Program-made: the position numbers and the translations under genes
The notes under the pieces: model-generated
What the model was told of the DNA's origin: nothing
Databases searched by the model: none
What the model saw: only the letters and a program-made list of their open reading frames with translations
Assembly (NCBI GenBank): GCA_028718635.1
Contig: JAQULK010000001.1
Location: 543,834-607,833 of the forward strand
Origin: Minisyncoccota bacterium
GTDB lineage: Bacteria > Patescibacteriota > Minisyncoccia > Phycocordibacterales > UBA9973
Direction of reading: 5' to 3'
Length of the DNA stretch: 64,000 nucleotides
Shown here: piece by piece, positions 31,241 to 43,053 of the stretch
Layout of the letters: each line of letters starts with the position of its first letter
How positions within the stretch are numbered: position 1 is the first letter of the stretch

Positions 31241-31278
31241 TACTTTACTTGACTAAAGTAATTTACTTTGATAAAGTA
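31241..31278 (+). promoter_or_regulatory. promoter with tandem HisR-type operators
   Basis: TACTTTA-N6-TAAAGTA (31241-31260) and TAATTTA-N6-TAAAGTA (31259-31278) overlapping -35 TTGACT, 17 nt, -10 TAAAGT. Confidence 0.75.
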
Positions 31279-31283
31279 GCGGT

Positions 31284-31688
31284 ATGAGTAAAGGAATGAA
31301 TAAAAATACATCAATAAATACGGTTAAGCTGATTCAAGGAATTGGCCCCAAGATGAATTGGGACGATAAGAAAAACAAACAATTCATTGAGGCAATCTTG
31401 AGTTTAAAAAATACCGATGAAGCCGAACGTTTTTTACGTGACTTAATGACTGAAAGTGAAATAAAAGAATTTGCGAATCGCCTCGAGGCTGCTTCCCTTC
31501 TATCTAAAGACGTACAATACAATGCGATTATTGAAAGCACGGGTCTTTCTTCTACAACGATCGCCAGAATAGCAAAATGGCTCAAAGGTTCGCTTGGTGG
31601 ATATCGCTTAATTTTATCCCGCTTATCTAATGTTTCTTTGCACCATCACAACTCTTCCAAACTTAGGAAAGGGTTGTTTTTGAGTTGA
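31284..31688 (+). CDS. TrpR-like YerC/YecD (HisR) repressor with a C-terminal His-His-His leader-like tail
   Basis: EAILSLK..DEAERFLRDLMTESE, TGLSSTTIARIAKWL...GGY; tail SLHHHNSSKLRKGLFLS. Confidence 0.9.
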   Translation: MSKGMNKNTSINTVKLIQGIGPKMNWDDKKNKQFIEAILSLKNTDEAERFLRDLMTESEIKEFANRLEAASLLSKDVQYNAIIESTGLSSTTIARIAKWLKGSLGGYRLILSRLSNVSLHHHNSSKLRKGLFLS

Positions 31689-31752
31689 TAATTATTTCAA
31701 AGTATTTTTCGAAACTAACCCCTTCCTAAGTTTAGGAAGGGGTTTTGCATTT
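31641..31752 (+). promoter_or_regulatory. His-responsive transcription attenuator
   Basis: CAC CAT CAC, then 1:2 hairpin 31649-31676, 2:3 pairing 31659-31675 with 31717-31733 (16/17), 3:4 terminator AACCCCTTCCTAA/TTAGGAAGGGGTT plus TT. Confidence 0.8.
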
Positions 31753-31788
31753 AGCAAAACTAATTTTTGTTCTTTGAAAGGAAAAAGT

Positions 31789-31941
31789 ATGAGAAAAAAG
31801 GAAAAAGTAAAGAAAGAAAGTAAAAAAGAAAAAGAAAGGAAGGCAGCAGAGAAAAGAAAGTCAGAGGACAAAGAACTCGACAGATTGGTTGATAGTTGGG
31901 GCAAGCGTTTCTTTGGTCTTGGAGGGGCATTAATAGATTAG
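31789..31941 (+). CDS. small Lys/Glu-rich hypothetical protein (50 aa; not in the ORF track)
   Basis: SD AAAGGA; MRKKEKVKKESKKEKERKAAEKRKSEDKELDRLVDSWGKRFFGLGGALID. Confidence 0.5.
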   Translation: MRKKEKVKKESKKEKERKAAEKRKSEDKELDRLVDSWGKRFFGLGGALID

Positions 31942-31957
31942 ATAAGGAGGTTAAAAA

Positions 31958-32167
31958 ATGATAGGAAAGAAAAAAATGTACAAGAAAGAAGAATTTCACA
32001 CTTGTTACAGCACAAGTGAAGAAATGGAAAAGGCACTTAAACCTTTTCGCGATGACGGCTGTTCTGACATACGTTTTATGTCCGAGTTAATTGAAATCGA
32101 AAAAAAACGGAAGCAACGATTTTGCAAACTATGCCTAAGACAAAAGTATAAAAACAAGTTAGATTAA
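31958..32167 (+). CDS. small hypothetical protein (69 aa)
   Basis: Perfect SD AAGGAGG; followed by a terminator. Confidence 0.55.
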   Translation: MIGKKKMYKKEEFHTCYSTSEEMEKALKPFRDDGCSDIRFMSELIEIEKKRKQRFCKLCLRQKYKNKLD

Positions 32168-32191
32168 TATCGCGTCTAATCAACGCAAGAA

Positions 32192-32222
32192 ATGGGGCGA
32201 ATCGTGAAACGATTCGCCCCAT
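32192..32222. terminator. hairpin terminator between convergent units
   Basis: ATGGGGCGAATCGT-GAA-ACGATTCGCCCCAT. Confidence 0.8.
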
Positions 32223-36856: not shown

Positions 36857-37921
36857 TTAATGCGCATTAACCAAATAATTCCTGGCTGAAAAAAGATATT
36901 GCTCTGTGAATATTTCTTTCATTGGGACTATAGAATTTTCTTCGTAAAAAGCCAAGATTGATTTTTTGTAAATATTTTCGTCAATGCTCCTGTATGAGAG
37001 TGGAGCGCAACCTTTTGAAAGAAGAACGGCATTGCAAAGCAAGCGCGCAGTGCGTTTATTGCCGTCTTCAAATGGTTGAATATATGAGAGACCCGCCAAA
37101 AGAGTAAGAGCGCCGCTGTAAACATCTTTCATTTTATTAACTAATTCACAAAGAGATTCCAGCGCTTCCTTAATCTGATATTTATTATCGAGAGGCTTAT
37201 ATTTTGTGCCGACAATACCGACAAGACCGTTTCTTATACCGCGAGCTATTCCTAATTTTTCAATAATTATTTCATGCACTTTTTCTATAAAAACAACATT
37301 CACTCCTTTTTTTTTGAAACCCTCTATATTTTCTAAAATGAAAGAAAAAGCTCTTTTGTGATTTAAGATCATTATCGCCTCATCCTGTGAATGACCCTTG
37401 GCTGGTATGCCTTCGCGAATCAAGCGTTCGGTATCCAATAAAGTATAGGTATTGCCTTCAATTTTTGAAGACTTCCAGGATAATTCAATTATGAAACGCT
37501 CCAATTCTTTTACATGGATTGTCGGTGTTAATTTTTTTATATTTTTTTTATATTGAGCTGTGGCAGAATCAAGGATATTTTTTTCGTCATCCGAAAATAT
37601 ATCAAGTGGAAATTCTTTGAATAAGCGAAAATTAAAAAAGCCGTTTCCTATTCTTTTGTCCGGTTCTATCGTATCATACACCGAGAGGTCTACTGGAGAA
37701 AATAAAATTCCTTTAATTGTTTTTTGGTATACAGTGGAACGTCCCTTGCCCTTTCTTTTAAGATATTCAGCTTTGCTCAGATAATCCAAATCCCGCTTTA
37801 TTGTTATTAGAGAAACTTTCTGTTTTTTATCCATTAAACCCAAAACGTCAGAAGAAGAAAACTCTTCATTTAGTTTTATATTTTTTAGAATATCCAGTTG
37901 TCTATTATTCAAATAATCCAT
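36857..37921 (-). CDS. Fic family protein with N-terminal winged HTH
   Basis: SSKIEGN, QPFEDGNKRTAR. Confidence 0.9.
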   Translation of the reverse strand: MDYLNNRQLDILKNIKLNEEFSSSDVLGLMDKKQKVSLITIKRDLDYLSKAEYLKRKGKGRSTVYQKTIKGILFSPVDLSVYDTIEPDKRIGNGFFNFRLFKEFPLDIFSDDEKNILDSATAQYKKNIKKLTPTIHVKELERFIIELSWKSSKIEGNTYTLLDTERLIREGIPAKGHSQDEAIMILNHKRAFSFILENIEGFKKKGVNVVFIEKVHEIIIEKLGIARGIRNGLVGIVGTKYKPLDNKYQIKEALESLCELVNKMKDVYSGALTLLAGLSYIQPFEDGNKRTARLLCNAVLLSKGCAPLSYRSIDENIYKKSILAFYEENSIVPMKEIFTEQYLFSARNYLVNAH

Positions 37922-37955
37922 AATTTTTTAAAAAATTTATCGTATCATTTTGACT

Positions 37956-37986
37956 CCCTAATCATATCATTTTGATACGATTAGGG
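37956..37986. promoter_or_regulatory. palindrome upstream of the Fic gene (candidate autoregulatory operator)
   Basis: CCCTAATCATATCA-TTT-TGATACGATTAGGG, with a partial second copy at 37939-37953. Confidence 0.55.
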
Positions 37987-38038
37987 CAATACCCAACATT
38001 ATTTGACTTTAAAAATTATTCGTGTAATATACATATTA

Positions 38039-38116
38039 ATGAAATCAAATATGAGTTTTAACAATTATTTCTTCTTTTTTAGCTTTTGGAGCCAAGGTTC
38101 CAGAGTTCATTTCTGA
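38039..38116 (+). CDS. Phe-rich attenuator leader peptide
   Basis: MKSNMSFNNYFFFFSFWSQGSRVHF, downstream of TTGACT-16-TAATAT. Confidence 0.85.
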   Translation: MKSNMSFNNYFFFFSFWSQGSRVHF

Positions 38117-38153
38117 TATTGTTAAAATCATTCTAAAACAAACATAACAATAC

Positions 38154-38192
38154 AAGAAACGAGCCCTGGAACGGGGCTCGTTTTTCTTTTTT
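38154..38192 (+). terminator. attenuator terminator upstream of pheA
   Basis: AAACGAGCCC-TGGAACG-GGGCTCGTTT plus T-run; antiterminator partner GTTCCAGAGTTC at 38097-38108. Confidence 0.85.
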
Positions 38193-38280
38193 GTTTAAGA
38201 GAAAAAAGTAGCACATCGTCAGAAGAATAAAAACGGTTGCCCTTAGGTGACTGAAAAAACTAGAAAGGAAGGAAAAAGTC

Positions 38281-39156
38281 ATGGAAAGAATTACTTATCT
38301 TGGCCCCCAAGGAGCAACATTCTCAGAGCTAGCTTACATAGAGCTGGCCAGGTTGTTTGGAGCTCCTAGTCTTAATGTGGGAGAAATAGTTCTGGCTGGA
38401 AAAAACCAAGACGTTTTGCCTTTGGTTTTCAACCATGGTGGCTATGGAGCTATAGCGATGGAAACAGATGCTGAGGGTAGAGTTGACGGACCTGTCAACA
38501 CTTTCATTCAGCTTCTTAGAAATTGCGAAACTTCAGAGGATTGCCCGATAACAGTTATTGGGGCAATCAAAATGCCTATTTCTTTTGCCCTTATGGTTAG
38601 ACCAGGAGTGCAAAAGAAAGACATTAGGACTGTTGTCGCACACCCAAAAGCATTAGGTGCATGCAGAAACATGGTCAACTGTTTAGTCAGTGACCAAGAA
38701 AAGATCATCGAGTCGGACAGTAATGGCTTAGCCGCCGAAGATGTTGCAACTAAACAAAAATTTTCTCAGGCTGCAGCACTTGGCCCAAGAGTCGCCGCAG
38801 ACAGGTATGGACTTCAGATTTTAGAAGAAGCTTGTGAAGATAGTCCTGCGACTACCACTTTTTTTCTTTTAGGACCTAAATCTCGCCCACAAGTGATGCA
38901 GGAGGTAAATAGGTCTTTATTAGTATTTCGGGTTAAACACGAACCTGGGTCACTTGTAAAGACACTTCTACCTTTCTCGGACGCAGGATTAAACTTGCGT
39001 CAAATTCATTCACTTTATACTGGCAAAGGTCAATATGACTTCGCAGTCGAGATTGAATGTGGAAAGGACCAAGAAGAGGACTTAGTACGTGCTATGTATG
39101 GATCAATGAGACACATGATGTGTTATGTTCTTTTCGGCCCTTTCCCTGTTGTTTAA
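38281..39156 (+). CDS. pheA: prephenate dehydratase-like protein with ACT domain
   Basis: YLGPQGATFSE, HPKALGAC, HEPGSL, NLRQIHS, GPFP; the usual TRF motif reads TTF. Confidence 0.85.
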   Translation: MERITYLGPQGATFSELAYIELARLFGAPSLNVGEIVLAGKNQDVLPLVFNHGGYGAIAMETDAEGRVDGPVNTFIQLLRNCETSEDCPITVIGAIKMPISFALMVRPGVQKKDIRTVVAHPKALGACRNMVNCLVSDQEKIIESDSNGLAAEDVATKQKFSQAAALGPRVAADRYGLQILEEACEDSPATTTFFLLGPKSRPQVMQEVNRSLLVFRVKHEPGSLVKTLLPFSDAGLNLRQIHSLYTGKGQYDFAVEIECGKDQEEDLVRAMYGSMRHMMCYVLFGPFPVV

Positions 39157-39259
39157 GTTCAATGTTTAAAAAAAAACAGCTACCTGTGGTGGCTGTAAAA
39201 ACAACACTAATTAAAGGAAGGAAGTAAAAAGAAATGAAAAAGAACCGTATTTTTCTCCA

Positions 39260-39400
39260 ATGCCTACGTCAGTACCGACAGTACCGTTTGAGCAGGTAAG
39301 TCTGCTTATACGACATATGGAAGCCCAAAAGGGCAAAAATGAAGAAGGAATGGAAAAAATAAAGAAAGAAGCTGAAGAAGCTGGCTTCAAAATAGAATAA
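39260..39400 (+). CDS. small hypothetical protein (46 aa; not in the ORF track)
   Basis: MPTSVPTVPFEQVSLLIRHMEAQKGKNEEGMEKIKKEAEEAGFKIE, ending just before a terminator; start uncertain. Confidence 0.35.
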   Translation: MPTSVPTVPFEQVSLLIRHMEAQKGKNEEGMEKIKKEAEEAGFKIE

Positions 39401-39421
39401 AGGTATCGTTTTTATCAACTT

Positions 39422-39458
39422 ATGCCGCCCTCACTATCTCAGGGCGGCATTTCTTTTT
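39422..39458 (+). terminator. intrinsic terminator of the pheA unit
   Basis: ATGCCGCCCT...AGGGCGGCAT followed by TTCTTTTT. Confidence 0.85.
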
Positions 39459-39492
39459 ATATTTTTTGAATTAATAAAATTTATTAAAAATG

Positions 39493-39531
39493 AAAAACCA
39501 GTAACACTTTTTTATTTCGGTGTTACTGGTT
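39493..39531 (-). terminator. terminator of the Trp-controlled unit
   Basis: AACCAGTAACAC...GTGTTACTGGTT followed by TTT on the minus strand. Confidence 0.7.
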
Positions 39532-39581
39532 GATTTTGAGAAGTTCGGCCTTCTCTTGCCTTGCTTGGAAAAGTGCCAAGC

Positions 39582-39764
39582 TCACCTAGAAAGTCCAGAG
39601 TCATTAATCTCTGGATCATTATCCAAAGATCCACATATCGCTAAAAGGATTCTGCATCCTCGACAATACCCACGCCAAACGCTGGGCATGTCCTCAATAA
39701 AGACAACCTTACCCTTGCATCTTGGGCAAGATTTTAATGGAAGTTGAATTCTTTCTTCTGACAC
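39582..39764 (-). CDS. 60-aa zinc-ribbon protein
   Basis: SD AAGGAGGT, GTG start, CPRC...CRGC. Confidence 0.65.
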   Translation of the reverse strand: MSEERIQLPLKSCPRCKGKVVFIEDMPSVWRGYCRGCRILLAICGSLDNDPEINDSGLSR

Positions 39765-39783
39765 AACGACCTCCTTTAAAGAA

Positions 39784-39810
39784 CAAAAATCAGCGCTTTG
39801 TTTTGCGCTG
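39784..39810 (-). terminator. Trp attenuator terminator
   Basis: CAGCGC-AAAACAAA-GCGCTG-ATTTTTG; antiterminator TTTTGCGCT lies in the leader. Confidence 0.75.
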
Positions 39811-39849
39811 TTTAATTGATTGCTTATAGATTAGGTTTATAAAAAGAAA

Positions 39850-39930
39850 TCAACAGAATAGCGCAAAAAGTTTTGTCTTTGTGCTCCACCAAGAATTCAT
39901 TAAAATATTTATTTCAAAATAATTTTTCAT
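39850..39930 (-). CDS. Trp attenuator leader peptide
   Basis: MKNYFEINILMNSWWSTKTKLFALFC with tandem TGG TGG. Confidence 0.8.
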   Translation of the reverse strand: MKNYFEINILMNSWWSTKTKLFALFC

Positions 39931-39993
39931 ATTGTTTATGTTTATTTATGCATTTATACTTAGATTCCTTATATTATTTACATATATATCTCT

Positions 39994-40039
39994 GTATCCA
40001 TGTACTAGTACATAGTAGTAGAATAAAAAAATAAAGCAA
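39994..40039 (-). promoter_or_regulatory. promoter with TrpR-type operator
   Basis: -35 TTGCTT, 16 nt, -10 TACTAT, overlapping palindrome ATGTACTAGTACAT (40000-40013); GTATC-N8-AGTAC resembles the TrpR GTACT-N8-AGTAC consensus. Confidence 0.65.
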
Positions 40040-40115
40040 GATATGCTCTTGTGGATAACCCCGCACTATAGCAAAGCTCAGTACAGGGCAAACTTTTTCA
40101 TTCATTTATTAGCCA

Positions 40116-40409
40116 CTACTTGCTTAACTTTTTTAGCATTAAATTAAAACCCCCATTCTTATTGCGAAGCTCGCGAGATCCTCGAGTGACAGTACTTATT
40201 CCAAGTCCTAAATCCCCTGCTACAGACCTATGAGTCTCTCCTTTGTTTAATTTTTTAACTATTTGCCACCTTAAGGCCATATCCTCAAGCTCAGAAGGTG
40301 TTGTAATATCTACTAAAAATTCTGTAAAAAGATTTTTATCTTTTCCAGCTTTTACTAAGATTTCTACAAGTTCTTTTTTATATTCTTTTAGTTTTTCTCT
40401 TTTGTTCAT
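40116..40409 (-). CDS. trpR: Trp repressor
   Basis: TPSE...LRWQIVKKL..GETHRSVAGDLGLGISTVTRGSREL; directly downstream of trpS. Confidence 0.92.
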   Translation of the reverse strand: MNKREKLKEYKKELVEILVKAGKDKNLFTEFLVDITTPSELEDMALRWQIVKKLNKGETHRSVAGDLGLGISTVTRGSRELRNKNGGFNLMLKKLSK

Positions 40410-40476
40410 CCCGGTACTAAAATTTTAAATATTAATCCTTATCTTTATTTCCCGTAATCAAAAATTTAGTACGGGA
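40409..40476. repeat. TCCC...GGGA inverted-repeat element, copy E2
   Basis: Fills the whole gap from the trpS stop to the trpR start; ends match E1. Confidence 0.8.
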
Positions 40477-41436
40477 CTAGTACACATTCACCCCGATCTT
40501 TTCTCGCACCTCGGCCATTTTTTTTGAAGCGACAATTTTTGCTTTTTCACCACCATTTTTAAGAATTTCTAGGGCTTTCGGAATATCTTTGGCAAATTCT
40601 TTTCTTTTTTCTCGAAGCGGGGCGATGAATTTTTCGATATCCTCTATCAGCATTTCTTTGAGTTCTTTATATTTGCCGGATTTTTCCGCATAAATCTTTT
40701 TCAATTCTTCTTCAGAACGGAAAAGTTTATGGATGGCGTAAACATTCTGAGGAATTCCCCCGCTGGAATCTGTCACAATACTCATCACGCATTTTTTTAT
40801 TTCTTCATATTCGGCAAAAAGTGGAATGGTGTTGCCATAACTCTTGCTCATTTTTCTCCCATCTGTACCGGGCACTATGGCGACATCTTTCAGAATCATT
40901 GACTCTGGCAATTTAAAGATTTGACCTCCTTCTCCGTAAACATTATTAAATTTTTCTGCTATATCTCGAGCTATTTCCACATGCTGTTTTTGATCAGCGC
41001 CTACTGGCACAAGGTCGGGACCATACATCAAAATATCCGCCGCCATCAAAACTGGATAATTGAAAGTGCCGACATCTATTTCTTTATTCTTCGCCTCGGC
41101 GTCTTTAAAGGCGTGCGCTCGCATCAGATACGGCATCGTGATGATGGTGTCAAAAATCCAAGTAAGCTCAGTATGTTCAGAAATATCGCTTTGTTTGAAA
41201 AATGTTATCTTTTGAGGATCGAGACCAATTGCTAAATAATCAAGCAAAATACTTGTGATGTTTTCCTTCATTTCACTGCGATTCCTAAGGGAATGCAACG
41301 CATGATAATCAGCTATAAAAACATAGCCATCATGCTCATTTTGGAGGTCGACGAATTGCTTCATCGCCCCAAAATAATTGCCGATATGAGGTTTTCCAGA
41401 GGGCTGAACGCCTGATAAGAATATCTTTTTTGACAT
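40477..41436 (-). CDS. trpS: tryptophanyl-tRNA synthetase
   Basis: SGVQPSG, HIGNYFG, YPVLMAADIL, VPVGADQ, KMSKS. Confidence 0.98.
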   Translation of the reverse strand: MSKKIFLSGVQPSGKPHIGNYFGAMKQFVDLQNEHDGYVFIADYHALHSLRNRSEMKENITSILLDYLAIGLDPQKITFFKQSDISEHTELTWIFDTIITMPYLMRAHAFKDAEAKNKEIDVGTFNYPVLMAADILMYGPDLVPVGADQKQHVEIARDIAEKFNNVYGEGGQIFKLPESMILKDVAIVPGTDGRKMSKSYGNTIPLFAEYEEIKKCVMSIVTDSSGGIPQNVYAIHKLFRSEEELKKIYAEKSGKYKELKEMLIEDIEKFIAPLREKRKEFAKDIPKALEILKNGGEKAKIVASKKMAEVREKIGVNVY

Positions 41437-41456
41437 GTTTATATATTTTACAAGGA

Positions 41457-41552
41457 AAAAGCAGATTATGCAAAGAATTTTTGAGCCTTCGCCCTCGGAG
41501 ACAAAAAGACAGGGAACCCACGACTCTTAAAATTCTTTCATAATCTGCTTTT
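41457..41552. repeat. long hairpin element family C, copy 2
   Basis: Arms AAAAGCAGATTATG/CATAATCTGCTTTT around CGCCCTCGGAGACAAAAGACAGGGAACCCAC. Confidence 0.8.
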
Positions 41553-41560
41553 AATTGTCC

Positions 41561-41586
41561 ACCTGCCTGCCTGCCGGCAGGCAGGT
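41561..41586. repeat. CCTGCCTGCCGGCAGGCAGG REP-like palindrome
   Basis: Same 20-mer as 17190-17209. Confidence 0.85.
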
Positions 41587-41658
41587 TAGTAACATTTTTT
41601 ACACTACTTTACGCACTTTTAAGCTTTGACAATTTTTCTACTATGCTAGAATGGCGTA

Positions 41659-43053
41659 ATGGCAAAAGTACTAAAAAATAATAATCTCCGCATTCCTCCT
41701 CAAAGCATCCCCTCCGAACAAGCAGTCCTCGGTTCTATTATGCTCCGCAAAGATGCCATGCATGAGGTTGAAGACATGATAACTTCGGATTCTTTTTACG
41801 TTGAAAAACACAAAAAGATTTTTCAGGCAATGCTCGACTTGTCGTTAAAAAATGAACCGATAGACATGCTTTCGCTTTCCACAAAATTAAAAGAACGAAA
41901 GCTCCTTGAAGCAGTCGGTGGCAACCAATATTTAGCTGAAATTGTAAATGTTGTTCCTTCTAGTACGAATATCAAACATTATGCAGACATAGTCCAAAAA
42001 AAATACGTTCTTCGAAGCCTGATAGAAGCGGCAGATTATGTATCAGAACTCGCTTTTGAAGAAGGCGACGACCACATGAATGATATTTTAGATATGGCGG
42101 AAAAGAAAATATTCGGCGTAGTCTCCTCTCCCAAAAATCAAAAATATGTAAACTTAAAAGATGCCTTGCCAGAAGCCTATGAGCGTTTGGAAAAATTACA
42201 TGAAAATAAAGGCATGCTTCGCGGACTCGCAACTGGATTCAAAGAATTAGACACAATGCTTTCTGGGTTGCAAAAATCTGATTTGGTTATTCTGGCAGCA
42301 AGGCCGAGTATGGGTAAGACTACCCTCGCCCTAGATATAGCGCGTATGTCTGGAGTATTACATGAAAAATCTATTTTAATATTTTCTTTAGAAATGTCTT
42401 CCCAGCAATTGGTGGACAGAATGCTCTCCGCTGAGTCCCGAGTGAATGCTTGGAATTTACGCACAGGAAGACTTTCTTCCGACCGAGAATTTTCTCAATT
42501 GCGAGACTCTTTGGATAAATTGGCCAAAGCAAAAATTTATATTGATGATCAGCCGGGAAATTCTATTGTCAAAATGAAAGCGCTTTCTCGCCGACTGAAG
42601 GCAGAAAAAGGGCTCGATCTTATCGTGGTGGATTATTTACAGCTGATGACTACCTCTAAAAATTACGATTCGATGGTCAATCAGGTTACAGAAATTTCCA
42701 GATCTTTAAAAAGTCTAGCCAAAGAATTAGACGTGCCAGTCTTGGCGCTTTCCCAGCTTTCTCGTGCAGTGGAATCTCGCGGCGGCAAGCCTCGTCTTTC
42801 TGATCTTCGCGACTCTGGATCCATTGAGCAAGACGCAGACGTCGTAATGTTTATTCACCGTGAAGATAGAGGAAAAGATGAATCAGAAAAAACAAACATT
42901 GCTGAGATTTTAGTAGAAAAACATCGCAATGGCCCGACTGGGAAAGTGGAACTCTATTTTGATGAAAAGACTACTACATTCTTGAACCTTGAAAAAAGCA
43001 ATTTGAGTGAATTTACTCCATCAAAAATCAAGGGAGATCTTGATGAATTCTAA
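41659..43053 (+). CDS. dnaB: replicative DNA helicase
   Basis: PPQSIPSEQAVLG, ARPSMGKT, FSLEM, VDYLQL, LSQLSR, LRDSGSIEQDAD, KHRNGPTG. Confidence 0.98.
   Translation: MAKVLKNNNLRIPPQSIPSEQAVLGSIMLRKDAMHEVEDMITSDSFYVEKHKKIFQAMLDLSLKNEPIDMLSLSTKLKERKLLEAVGGNQYLAEIVNVVPSSTNIKHYADIVQKKYVLRSLIEAADYVSELAFEEGDDHMNDILDMAEKKIFGVVSSPKNQKYVNLKDALPEAYERLEKLHENKGMLRGLATGFKELDTMLSGLQKSDLVILAARPSMGKTTLALDIARMSGVLHEKSILIFSLEMSSQQLVDRMLSAESRVNAWNLRTGRLSSDREFSQLRDSLDKLAKAKIYIDDQPGNSIVKMKALSRRLKAEKGLDLIVVDYLQLMTTSKNYDSMVNQVTEISRSLKSLAKELDVPVLALSQLSRAVESRGGKPRLSDLRDSGSIEQDADVVMFIHREDRGKDESEKTNIAEILVEKHRNGPTGKVELYFDEKTTTFLNLEKSNLSEFTPSKIKGDLDEF

Follow-up and report, generated by a model that had tools for sequence, protein, structure and literature searches.

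The stretch of DNA analysed here (64,000 nucleotides, hereafter the window) lies in the genome of a CPR bacterium (G000; 761 kb, 4 contigs, completeness 98.7%). The locus under study is on the minus strand of the window, flanked by trpS, which encodes tryptophanyl-tRNA synthetase (40477..41436; PF00579, E 2.5e-62), and by a convergent prephenate dehydratase gene. An earlier note on this DNA had listed trpS-trpR, an operator-overlapped promoter, a leader with tandem Trp codons (WW), an attenuator, an SD, a CxxC…CxxC ORF and a terminator, and every one of these parts was located on the minus strand. Beyond trpS, the trpR gene (40116..40409) encodes a clade A TrpR-type repressor (PF01371, above cut-off), and a hairpin (40058..40089; -19 kcal/mol, z -2.5) separates trpR from the promoter and likely insulates the cassette. 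A DnaA-box-like sequence, TTATCCACA (40050..40058), found in most loci, lies upstream of the -35 of the predicted promoter, TTGCTT-N16-TACTAT (40012..40039; -35 at 40039-40034, -10 at 40017-40012, 16-bp spacer). The predicted TrpR operator, ATGTACTAGTACAT (40000..40013), is a strand-neutral palindrome over -10/+1. The 26-aa leader peptide (39850..39930) has its tandem Trp codons at 39891-39886, and the attenuator (39778..39885) comprises a 1:2 helix, a 2:3 antiterminator with an extension helix, and a 3:4 terminator with a U-rich tract. Its segments (1, 39885-39877; 2, 39868-39860; 3, 39810-39801; 4, 39796-39791) carry the trpL segment names. There follow a boxA-like motif, GTTCTTTAAA (39769..39784), overlapping an 8-nt SD, AAGGAGGT (39776-39769), a 60-aa zinc-ribbon ORF with a GTG start (39582..39764), a 3' module (39537..39588) made up of a predicted H-type pseudoknot (39588-39563) and a small hairpin, and an intrinsic terminator (39530-39497, within 39486..39530; 11-bp stem, z -5.85) that ends the unit. 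The boxA-like motif and the pseudoknot-like 3' module had escaped the earlier note.

Misassembly of this region is unlikely because a single unitig, from a sequencing run that was itself possibly the source of the assembly, covered 37800-40803 with zero differences. An Rfam scan of 37800-41700 produced no match near the gathering score. The single-genome evidence for some of the elements was weak, and the locus stands above chance because the elements are conserved across the genus. The gap between trpS and trpR (40410-40475) contains an imperfect inverted repeat that is absent from the sister genome G220 and from locus L097 and to which many other contigs map, and which is possibly a mobile palindromic repeat.

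The TrpR of the window is 97 aa in length and matched PF01371 with 64.8 bits. The best NCBIfam model was TIGR01321, at 48.9 bits (below its equivalog cut-off of 67.25 bits), with the YerC model at 31.3, and the top PDB matches were E. coli TrpR. The equivalents of T44 and R54, residues with a role in Trp binding, were invariant across 52 TrpR sequences. Of the six DNA-contact residues named in PMC9413887 (R69, I79, A80, T81, T83 and R84), five were identical in our alignment and A80 was replaced by S. Binding of DNA by this protein would be Trp-dependent. The window encodes another PF01371-family protein (31284-31688, plus strand), a YerC/HisR-type paralogue and not TrpR, and upstream of its gene is a palindrome fitting the HisR consensus given in PMC9413887, so that the two genes are separable. 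The region of that paralogue (31245-32200, plus strand), with its C-terminal His triplet, terminator-like hairpin, boxA-like motif and two small orphan ORFs, is a histidine slot parallel to the Trp cassette.

Within G000 the operator at 40000-40013 was the only exact copy of ATGTACTAGTACAT, in a genome with 210 perfect 14-bp palindromes, and a scan for consensus promoters did not list the predicted promoter at 40012-40039. We searched 201 genomes of the genus for trpR, and 69 of them, counting G000, had a match at E<1e-25; weaker matches, among them the YerC-type paralogue, were excluded. One genome has two copies, giving 70 loci (69 relative loci and the window; locus L088 is from an unpublished genome, G084), and kin among these loci are not mutually independent. 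An operator was present 3' of trpR in all 70 loci, and was of one of two types, with type A (ATGYACTAGTRCA) at 32 loci and type B (CATACTAGTATG-like) at the other 38. Type-A operators were identical in 22 of 32 loci and had a symmetric double change in 5, and in all 32 a TAYHAT hexamer overlapped the operator with TTG 16-17 bp upstream. Operator type co-segregated with the TrpR clade, requiring one change on the TrpR tree (SH-aLRT 97, from a quick tree) and 16 changes on the AspS tree of 49 loci. The E. coli trp operator has GNACT half-sites with an 8-bp spacer, whereas the half-sites of the window operator abut in the 14-bp palindrome; the latter is a variant form that co-varies with its repressor. 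It resembles the oligonucleotide of the tandem-binding TrpR crystal, and our literature search found no paper for a TrpR operator with abutting half-sites. In type-B loci such as L071, the leader ATG is inside the operator, approximately 7 nt past the -10 hexamer, which suggests that the type-B leader peptide is leaderless. The DnaA-box-like sequence TTATCCACA occurs at 31 sites in G000, many of them just 5' of promoter-like sequences, and precedes the Trp promoter in most relatives.

In 53 of the 70 trpR loci we detected a leader with an attenuator, and 52 leaders were analysed after L039, whose extracted segment was incomplete, had been left out. The Trp codons were WW in 47 leaders and WR in 5, and the distance from the first Trp codon to the stop codon was 39 nt in 35 of the 52. 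The alignment used for covariation held 36 of the 53 leaders after removal of any with longer insertions or an incomplete segment. In these 36 leaders, 85.9% of cells were compatible with 1:2 and 3:4 pairing, and 90.7% with 2:3 pairing and the extension. For both alternative structures the covariation score was higher than in every one of 500 shuffles and in each slid control, although such controls account only partly for relatedness. Folding was modelled at equilibrium with the ribosome as a mask and the terminator scored by pair probability. With a running ribosome the terminator formed in 52 of 52 attenuators, and with a stalled ribosome it was lost in 41 of 52, including that of the window (pair probability 0.99 running, 0.00 stalled); the remaining 11 showed no switching in this model. 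The 1:2 hairpin of the window has an A-C mismatch and folded no better than shuffles (z -0.19). The attenuator has the features of one mediated by the ribosome, namely a short leader whose tandem Trp codons keep a fixed distance from the helices, and mutually exclusive antiterminator and terminator structures with a U tract. On the model, switching at the window attenuator is predicted, as is Trp-dependent termination there. Together, the operator in 70 of 70 loci, the covariation of both structures and the folding switch in the window support the proposal in the earlier note of a dual control by TrpR and a WW attenuator.

Comparison of the 70 loci indicated that this control serves varied genes. 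The gene before trpR was trpS in 64 loci, and trp genes occupied the cargo slot in 15; Trp biosynthetic genes would be under this control in those loci, and none were found in G000. Among the other cargo were an Asp/Glu racemase, PEP-utilising proteins, small ORFs, and unnamed enzyme-sized proteins that occur together with a histidine phosphatase; the first cargo gene encoded 130 aa or fewer in 43 of 69 loci (starts hand-picked). In G000, neither TrpA nor a chorismate-binding protein was detected, and tblastn for trpB, trpA, trpE, trpD-C and trpF gave no match. Genus-wide, TrpA was over the cut-off in 9 of 212 genomes, as were chorismate-binding enzymes. The slot was closed by aspS or prs in 55 loci, and 35 of the 45 closed slots lacking trp genes kept a leader with an intact attenuator. 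On the AspS tree of 49 loci, trp cargo was scattered (8 changes for 9 rows, with 211 of 500 shuffles as low). Recent exchange is indicated by loci L041 and L046, whose trpB genes are nearly identical (pS 0.06) despite an AspS identity of 42%; AspS itself may also be mobile. Throughout the genus the Trp cassette forms an exchangeable slot and is not a unit built round the zinc-ribbon ORF.

Several further observations were made on the cargo and its surroundings. Two enzyme-sized cargo families, of approximately 250 aa and 345 aa, were each found with a histidine phosphatase under Trp control and had no Pfam or NCBIfam match (L076, L085, L092, L099, L052, L053; L095, L079, L038, L044, L054, L069). 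Trp at positions 2-4 was found in 7 small cargo ORFs, far above background. In L077, L082, L090, L096, L078 and L076, the stretch that separates the attenuator from the start of the cargo holds a further conserved RNA-like element (GTTTGTGAAAACT…CTCAGGTG…GAATCTACC). The window also holds a second leader attenuator, at 38039-38190 on the plus strand, with a Phe run (YFFFFSF), before the prephenate dehydratase gene; its terminator region has a z of approximately -5, the leader region is 90% identical in the sister G220, and 11 other loci, whose cargo varies, have related Phe/Tyr leaders. After the prephenate dehydratase gene, at 39260-39400 on the plus strand, is a 46-aa ORF with an SD and no Pfam or NCBIfam match.

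The homology and structure searches that the earlier note had proposed for the 60-aa ORF yielded a family of 11 sequences and a confident all-beta model. A word-based protein search with the ORF found nothing, a single-protein search was positive in 0 of 60 relatives, and no Pfam or NCBIfam family model was over its cut-off. The resulting reading of the ORF as an orphan was overturned by a phmmer search against 1.84 billion representatives, which gave 11 matches, 8 of them small proteins (46-61% identity), and by a profile search that added the protein of G220 and P0012 to reach 11 family sequences including that of the window. The family motif is C-x2-C-x8-D-x4-W-x-G-[YF]-C-x2-C, and C13, C16, D25, W30, G32, C34 and C37 were invariant in the 10 aligned members; binding of Zn by the four Cys is predicted from this pattern. 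Relative to G220, the ORF had a dN/dS of 0.34 over 50 codons (Fisher P 0.005) and a dS of 0.72, near those of aspS (0.94) and prs (1.20). The dN/dS of aspS and prs was 0.03-0.04, and selection on the ORF is relaxed relative to these genes. The AlphaFold model (pLDDT 88) was all-beta and zinc-ribbon-like. These sequence comparisons indicate that the ORF is very probably a real, conserved protein-coding cargo.

The family is rare, with a member in 1 of 211 other genomes of the genus and in 0 of 400 draws from the order and 0 of 400 from the phylum. A related-locus search of genome contigs found nothing, and the seven metagenome loci from this search encode unrelated CPxC proteins. There were no longer fused forms among 4664 candidates, which is weak evidence. 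Of the 8 genome and 2 viral matches to the pattern, just two gave a score with the family profile, L114 and L116, and the former, a duplicate of another locus in the set, was left out of the count.

No clear structural match emerged from the fold searches. The ESM Atlas returned only unnamed zinc-finger clusters (0.94), Foldseek had no match at E<=0.001, and the best Z in the fold searches was 4.7. The best PDB sequence match of the family profile was ribosomal eS31 (E 0.002, above the 0.001 threshold), and generic zinc ribbons scored similarly. The proteins eS31/S27ae, Trm112 and LysW each have a Cys4 beta-ribbon like that of the window protein, none significantly matched (Foldseek E 0.74-1.9 for Trm112 and LysW; Z 3.3-3.5 for LysW), and the window family differs from all of them in its own invariant D-x4-W-x-G motif.

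Genomic context tied the family to the Trp regulon. By AspS, G220 is the sister of the window (95% identical), and its locus runs from trpS through a type-B trpR (51% identical) and the same attenuator to the orthologous ORF, after which come a hairpin that has no U tract and then trpB-trpA. In L116, a Ca. Doudnabacteria record that encodes family member P0006, trpR has an operator on either side; next comes a WW leader whose attenuator is switchable, then another ORF, the homologue and its terminator, and a third operator completes the series; inspection by eye of the ORFs within 3 kb on each side revealed no evident trp enzyme. The called N-terminus of P0012 is a near-exact translation of the promoter-operator DNA of the window (score 130, background maximum 47), and because this over-called N-terminus translates the promoter-operator, P0012 is likely directly behind an operator without a leader. 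The N-terminal extension of P0002 was not above background. Of the nine homologues that the protein searches supplied, seven have no usable context. All three members seen as DNA (window, G220 and L116) lie behind trpR, an operator and a WW attenuator, and it is mainly these three contexts, with the inferred fourth, that mark the protein as a member of the regulon rather than a filler.

The sister locus also bears on the history of the window. For the earlier note, an ORF neither translated nor conserved, along with a simple trp operon deletion evident from relatives, would have told against its view, and it had asked what follows this leader elsewhere. The ORF is conserved, and other cargo prevails over trp genes, but G220 partly bears out the second point: trpB-trpA stand right after its orthologous ORF, and trpBA may have been lost at the window. 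In an extended form of this idea, a salvage operon of trpR, leader, ORF and trpBA was deprived of its trpBA part, and what remains of it, switch and ORF, is in decay. Consistent with such decay, the DNA similarity to G220, otherwise carrying the same attenuator and ORF, stops at 39608, inside the ORF tail, and the dN/dS of the ORF is ten times that of housekeeping genes. We consider this unlikely, since TrpA was so much rarer than trpR (69 of 201 genomes), attenuators were mostly retained in closed slots free of trp genes, a 3' module and a terminator of its own accompany the ORF, no trp enzyme is evident near the Doudnabacteria copy, and the window switch is still functional in the folding model. 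The trpBA genes may have been either lost in G000 or gained in G220, where the synonymous sites of trpB are near saturation. Comparison of the parts suggests that the window copy is a mosaic: trpS, the attenuator and the ORF match G220 up to 39608, trpR and the promoter are of type A, and the 3' module matches L097 and L098.

The adjacency of trpR in all three contexts could also be explained by an anti-TRAP-like feedback factor: the zinc ribbon would attach to Trp-loaded TrpR (or to TrpRS) and strengthen derepression. The protein is small, has four Cys and is predicted to be induced by uncharged tRNA-Trp, as is the B. subtilis AT protein (PMC11255114). Between the sisters, however, TrpR has been exchanged (with a different operator) and the ORF kept, most trpR loci have no such ORF, and with no other exact operator in G000 the protein would mainly regulate itself. 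A complex prediction for the TrpR dimer with the ORF protein scored 0.24, under the mark of 0.32, and weighs neither for nor against. Of the explanations considered, we hold this to be the least likely.

The signals around the ORF are unusual for this genome. An SD match of at least 8 nt, as in the window, was present in 0 of 445 long ORFs of G000, and 392 of the 445 had a match of less than 4 nt. No 16S gene was found in the assembly. The boxA-like motif (GTTCTTTAAA in the window) was present in 39 of 69 loci against 2.6 in shuffles; NusB is present in G000 and Rho was not detected there. Contig C1 of G000 has isolated small ORFs with a strong SD at 391307-391676, 371648-371842, 388669-388899 and 524500-524715, three of which are Cys-rich. 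The 3' module is common to the window, L097 and L098 (three sequences, with pairings judged by eye), and hairpins homologous to the final terminator of the window occur in both of these loci. In L097 and L098 the predicted pseudoknot begins at the stop codon of a micro-ORF that ends in Trp, and the pseudoknot of the window is preceded by an out-of-frame W-T-F-stop relic.

This relic would fit a role in cis, with the ORF as a second Trp-sensing frame that controls 3' RNA structure or mRNA stability and the protein as incidental. Two patterns elsewhere in the genus point the same way. A Trp was found in the last 8 residues of 17 of 39 small first-cargo ORFs, compared to 40 of 581 long ORFs of G000 (the starts were chosen by hand, and kin are not independent). 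In addition, 12 of the 70 loci (L045, L047, L049, L056, L061, L063, L064, L074, L082, L091, L093 and L098) have micro-ORFs of 8-14 codons with at least two Trp codons and a very strong SD, many with a predicted pseudoknot starting at the stop codon. A purely cis role is very unlikely for the window ORF itself, as all 10 aligned members keep the four Cys together with Asp25, Trp30 and Gly32, the fold is confident, the ORF has no C-terminal Trp, and nothing follows its terminator.

The reading we prefer, with a probability of about 0.72, is that the locus is a conserved two-tier Trp switch with a swappable slot, which here would induce, under Trp starvation alone, a real zinc-ribbon microprotein, a recurrent member of the regulon and perhaps a small binding factor acting on the translation machinery. 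It builds on the observed anatomy of the locus, its conservation and covariation, the coding selection on the ORF and its linkage to the regulon, and computation supports both the switch and the coding status well. Trp-loaded TrpR would cover -10/+1, and as free Trp falls transcription would start near 40005. While charged tRNA-Trp is present, the ribosome would reach the leader stop codon and mask segment 2, allowing the 3:4 terminator to form. When charged tRNA-Trp is scarce, the ribosome would stall at WW, segment 2 would pair with segment 3, and RNA polymerase would read through. The 8-nt SD would then have the ORF translated strongly, with the 3' module ending the message. Since genes for Trp synthesis were not found in G000, we interpret the output as a starvation response rather than biosynthesis, and the zinc-ribbon protein is likely a dedicated Trp-starvation factor. 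The idea in the earlier note of a Trp-starvation-induced microprotein is partly supported: the cargo is coding and conserved, with a family and constrained codons, and its induction is predicted; the cassette is not built round this ORF.

The inducing signal and the sub-threshold match to the eS31 profile led us to guess at the translation machinery; that the ribosome or RNA is the target of the protein is a guess, and a doubtful one. We further speculate that Trp-auxotrophic CPR episymbionts repurposed the trp switch as a plug-in starvation slot, and that the family, recruited behind TrpR in both Paceibacteria and the distant Doudnabacteria, is a new eS31-like ribosome-binding factor that parks or protects Trp-stalled ribosomes when the host supply stops, a scenario that seems rather unlikely as a whole.

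CPR genomes are usually viewed as little regulated and have many orphan small genes without a functional handle. The loci described here retain a two-tier amino-acid switch that covaries across dozens of genomes, most of them without the pathway, and the switch predicts coupled transcription-translation control in a lineage with few SD genes and no Rho found. A set of orphan proteins is hereby assigned a specific inducing condition, and the zinc-ribbon family, with its link to the regulon in lineages far apart, offers a good point of entry.

The closest known system is trp control in E. coli, in which trpL has tandem Trp codons and 1:2, 2:3 and 3:4 helices. The window shares with it a TrpR-family repressor with a conserved recognition helix, a palindrome over the promoter, tandem Trp codons and the three alternative helices. 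It differs in having abutting operator half-sites, in a genus with two repressor-operator types, in trpR being directly upstream of the cassette and behind trpS, in an exchangeable cargo that here is non-biosynthetic, and in a genome where Rho was not found and most genes have no SD. Chlamydia trachomatis trpRBA is comparable as the system of a host-dependent bacterium with TrpR beside trpBA salvage genes, as in G220. Chlamydia, however, is reported to attenuate via YtgR (PMC7755916), while the CPR locus relies on a leader peptide in cis, and trpBA is absent from the window. The earlier note had drawn an analogy to Bacillus anti-TRAP (AT, RtpA), likewise a zinc-ribbon protein of approximately 55-60 aa tied to uncharged tRNA-Trp, and this holds as an analogy only. 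AT was not one of the 12 PDB sequences that the family profile matched at E<=5, and it did not appear in the Pfam matches of 10 members. AT has a C-terminal helix (38-50) that forms a three-helix bundle (PMC11255114), whereas the window model has strands only and no C-terminal trimer helix. TRAP (PF02081) was not found in G000, with a positive B. subtilis control, and AT is under T-box control, whereas the window uses leader-peptide control, with no Rfam match in the region scanned. The ORF as anti-TRAP is ruled out by sequence, predicted structure, target and mode of control. Our searches of the open-access literature showed no description of TrpR operators or Trp attenuators in Patescibacteria/CPR. 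The locus combines the known design of E. coli trp with variant operator geometry, two co-evolved repressor-operator types, a swappable slot and a non-biosynthetic cargo.
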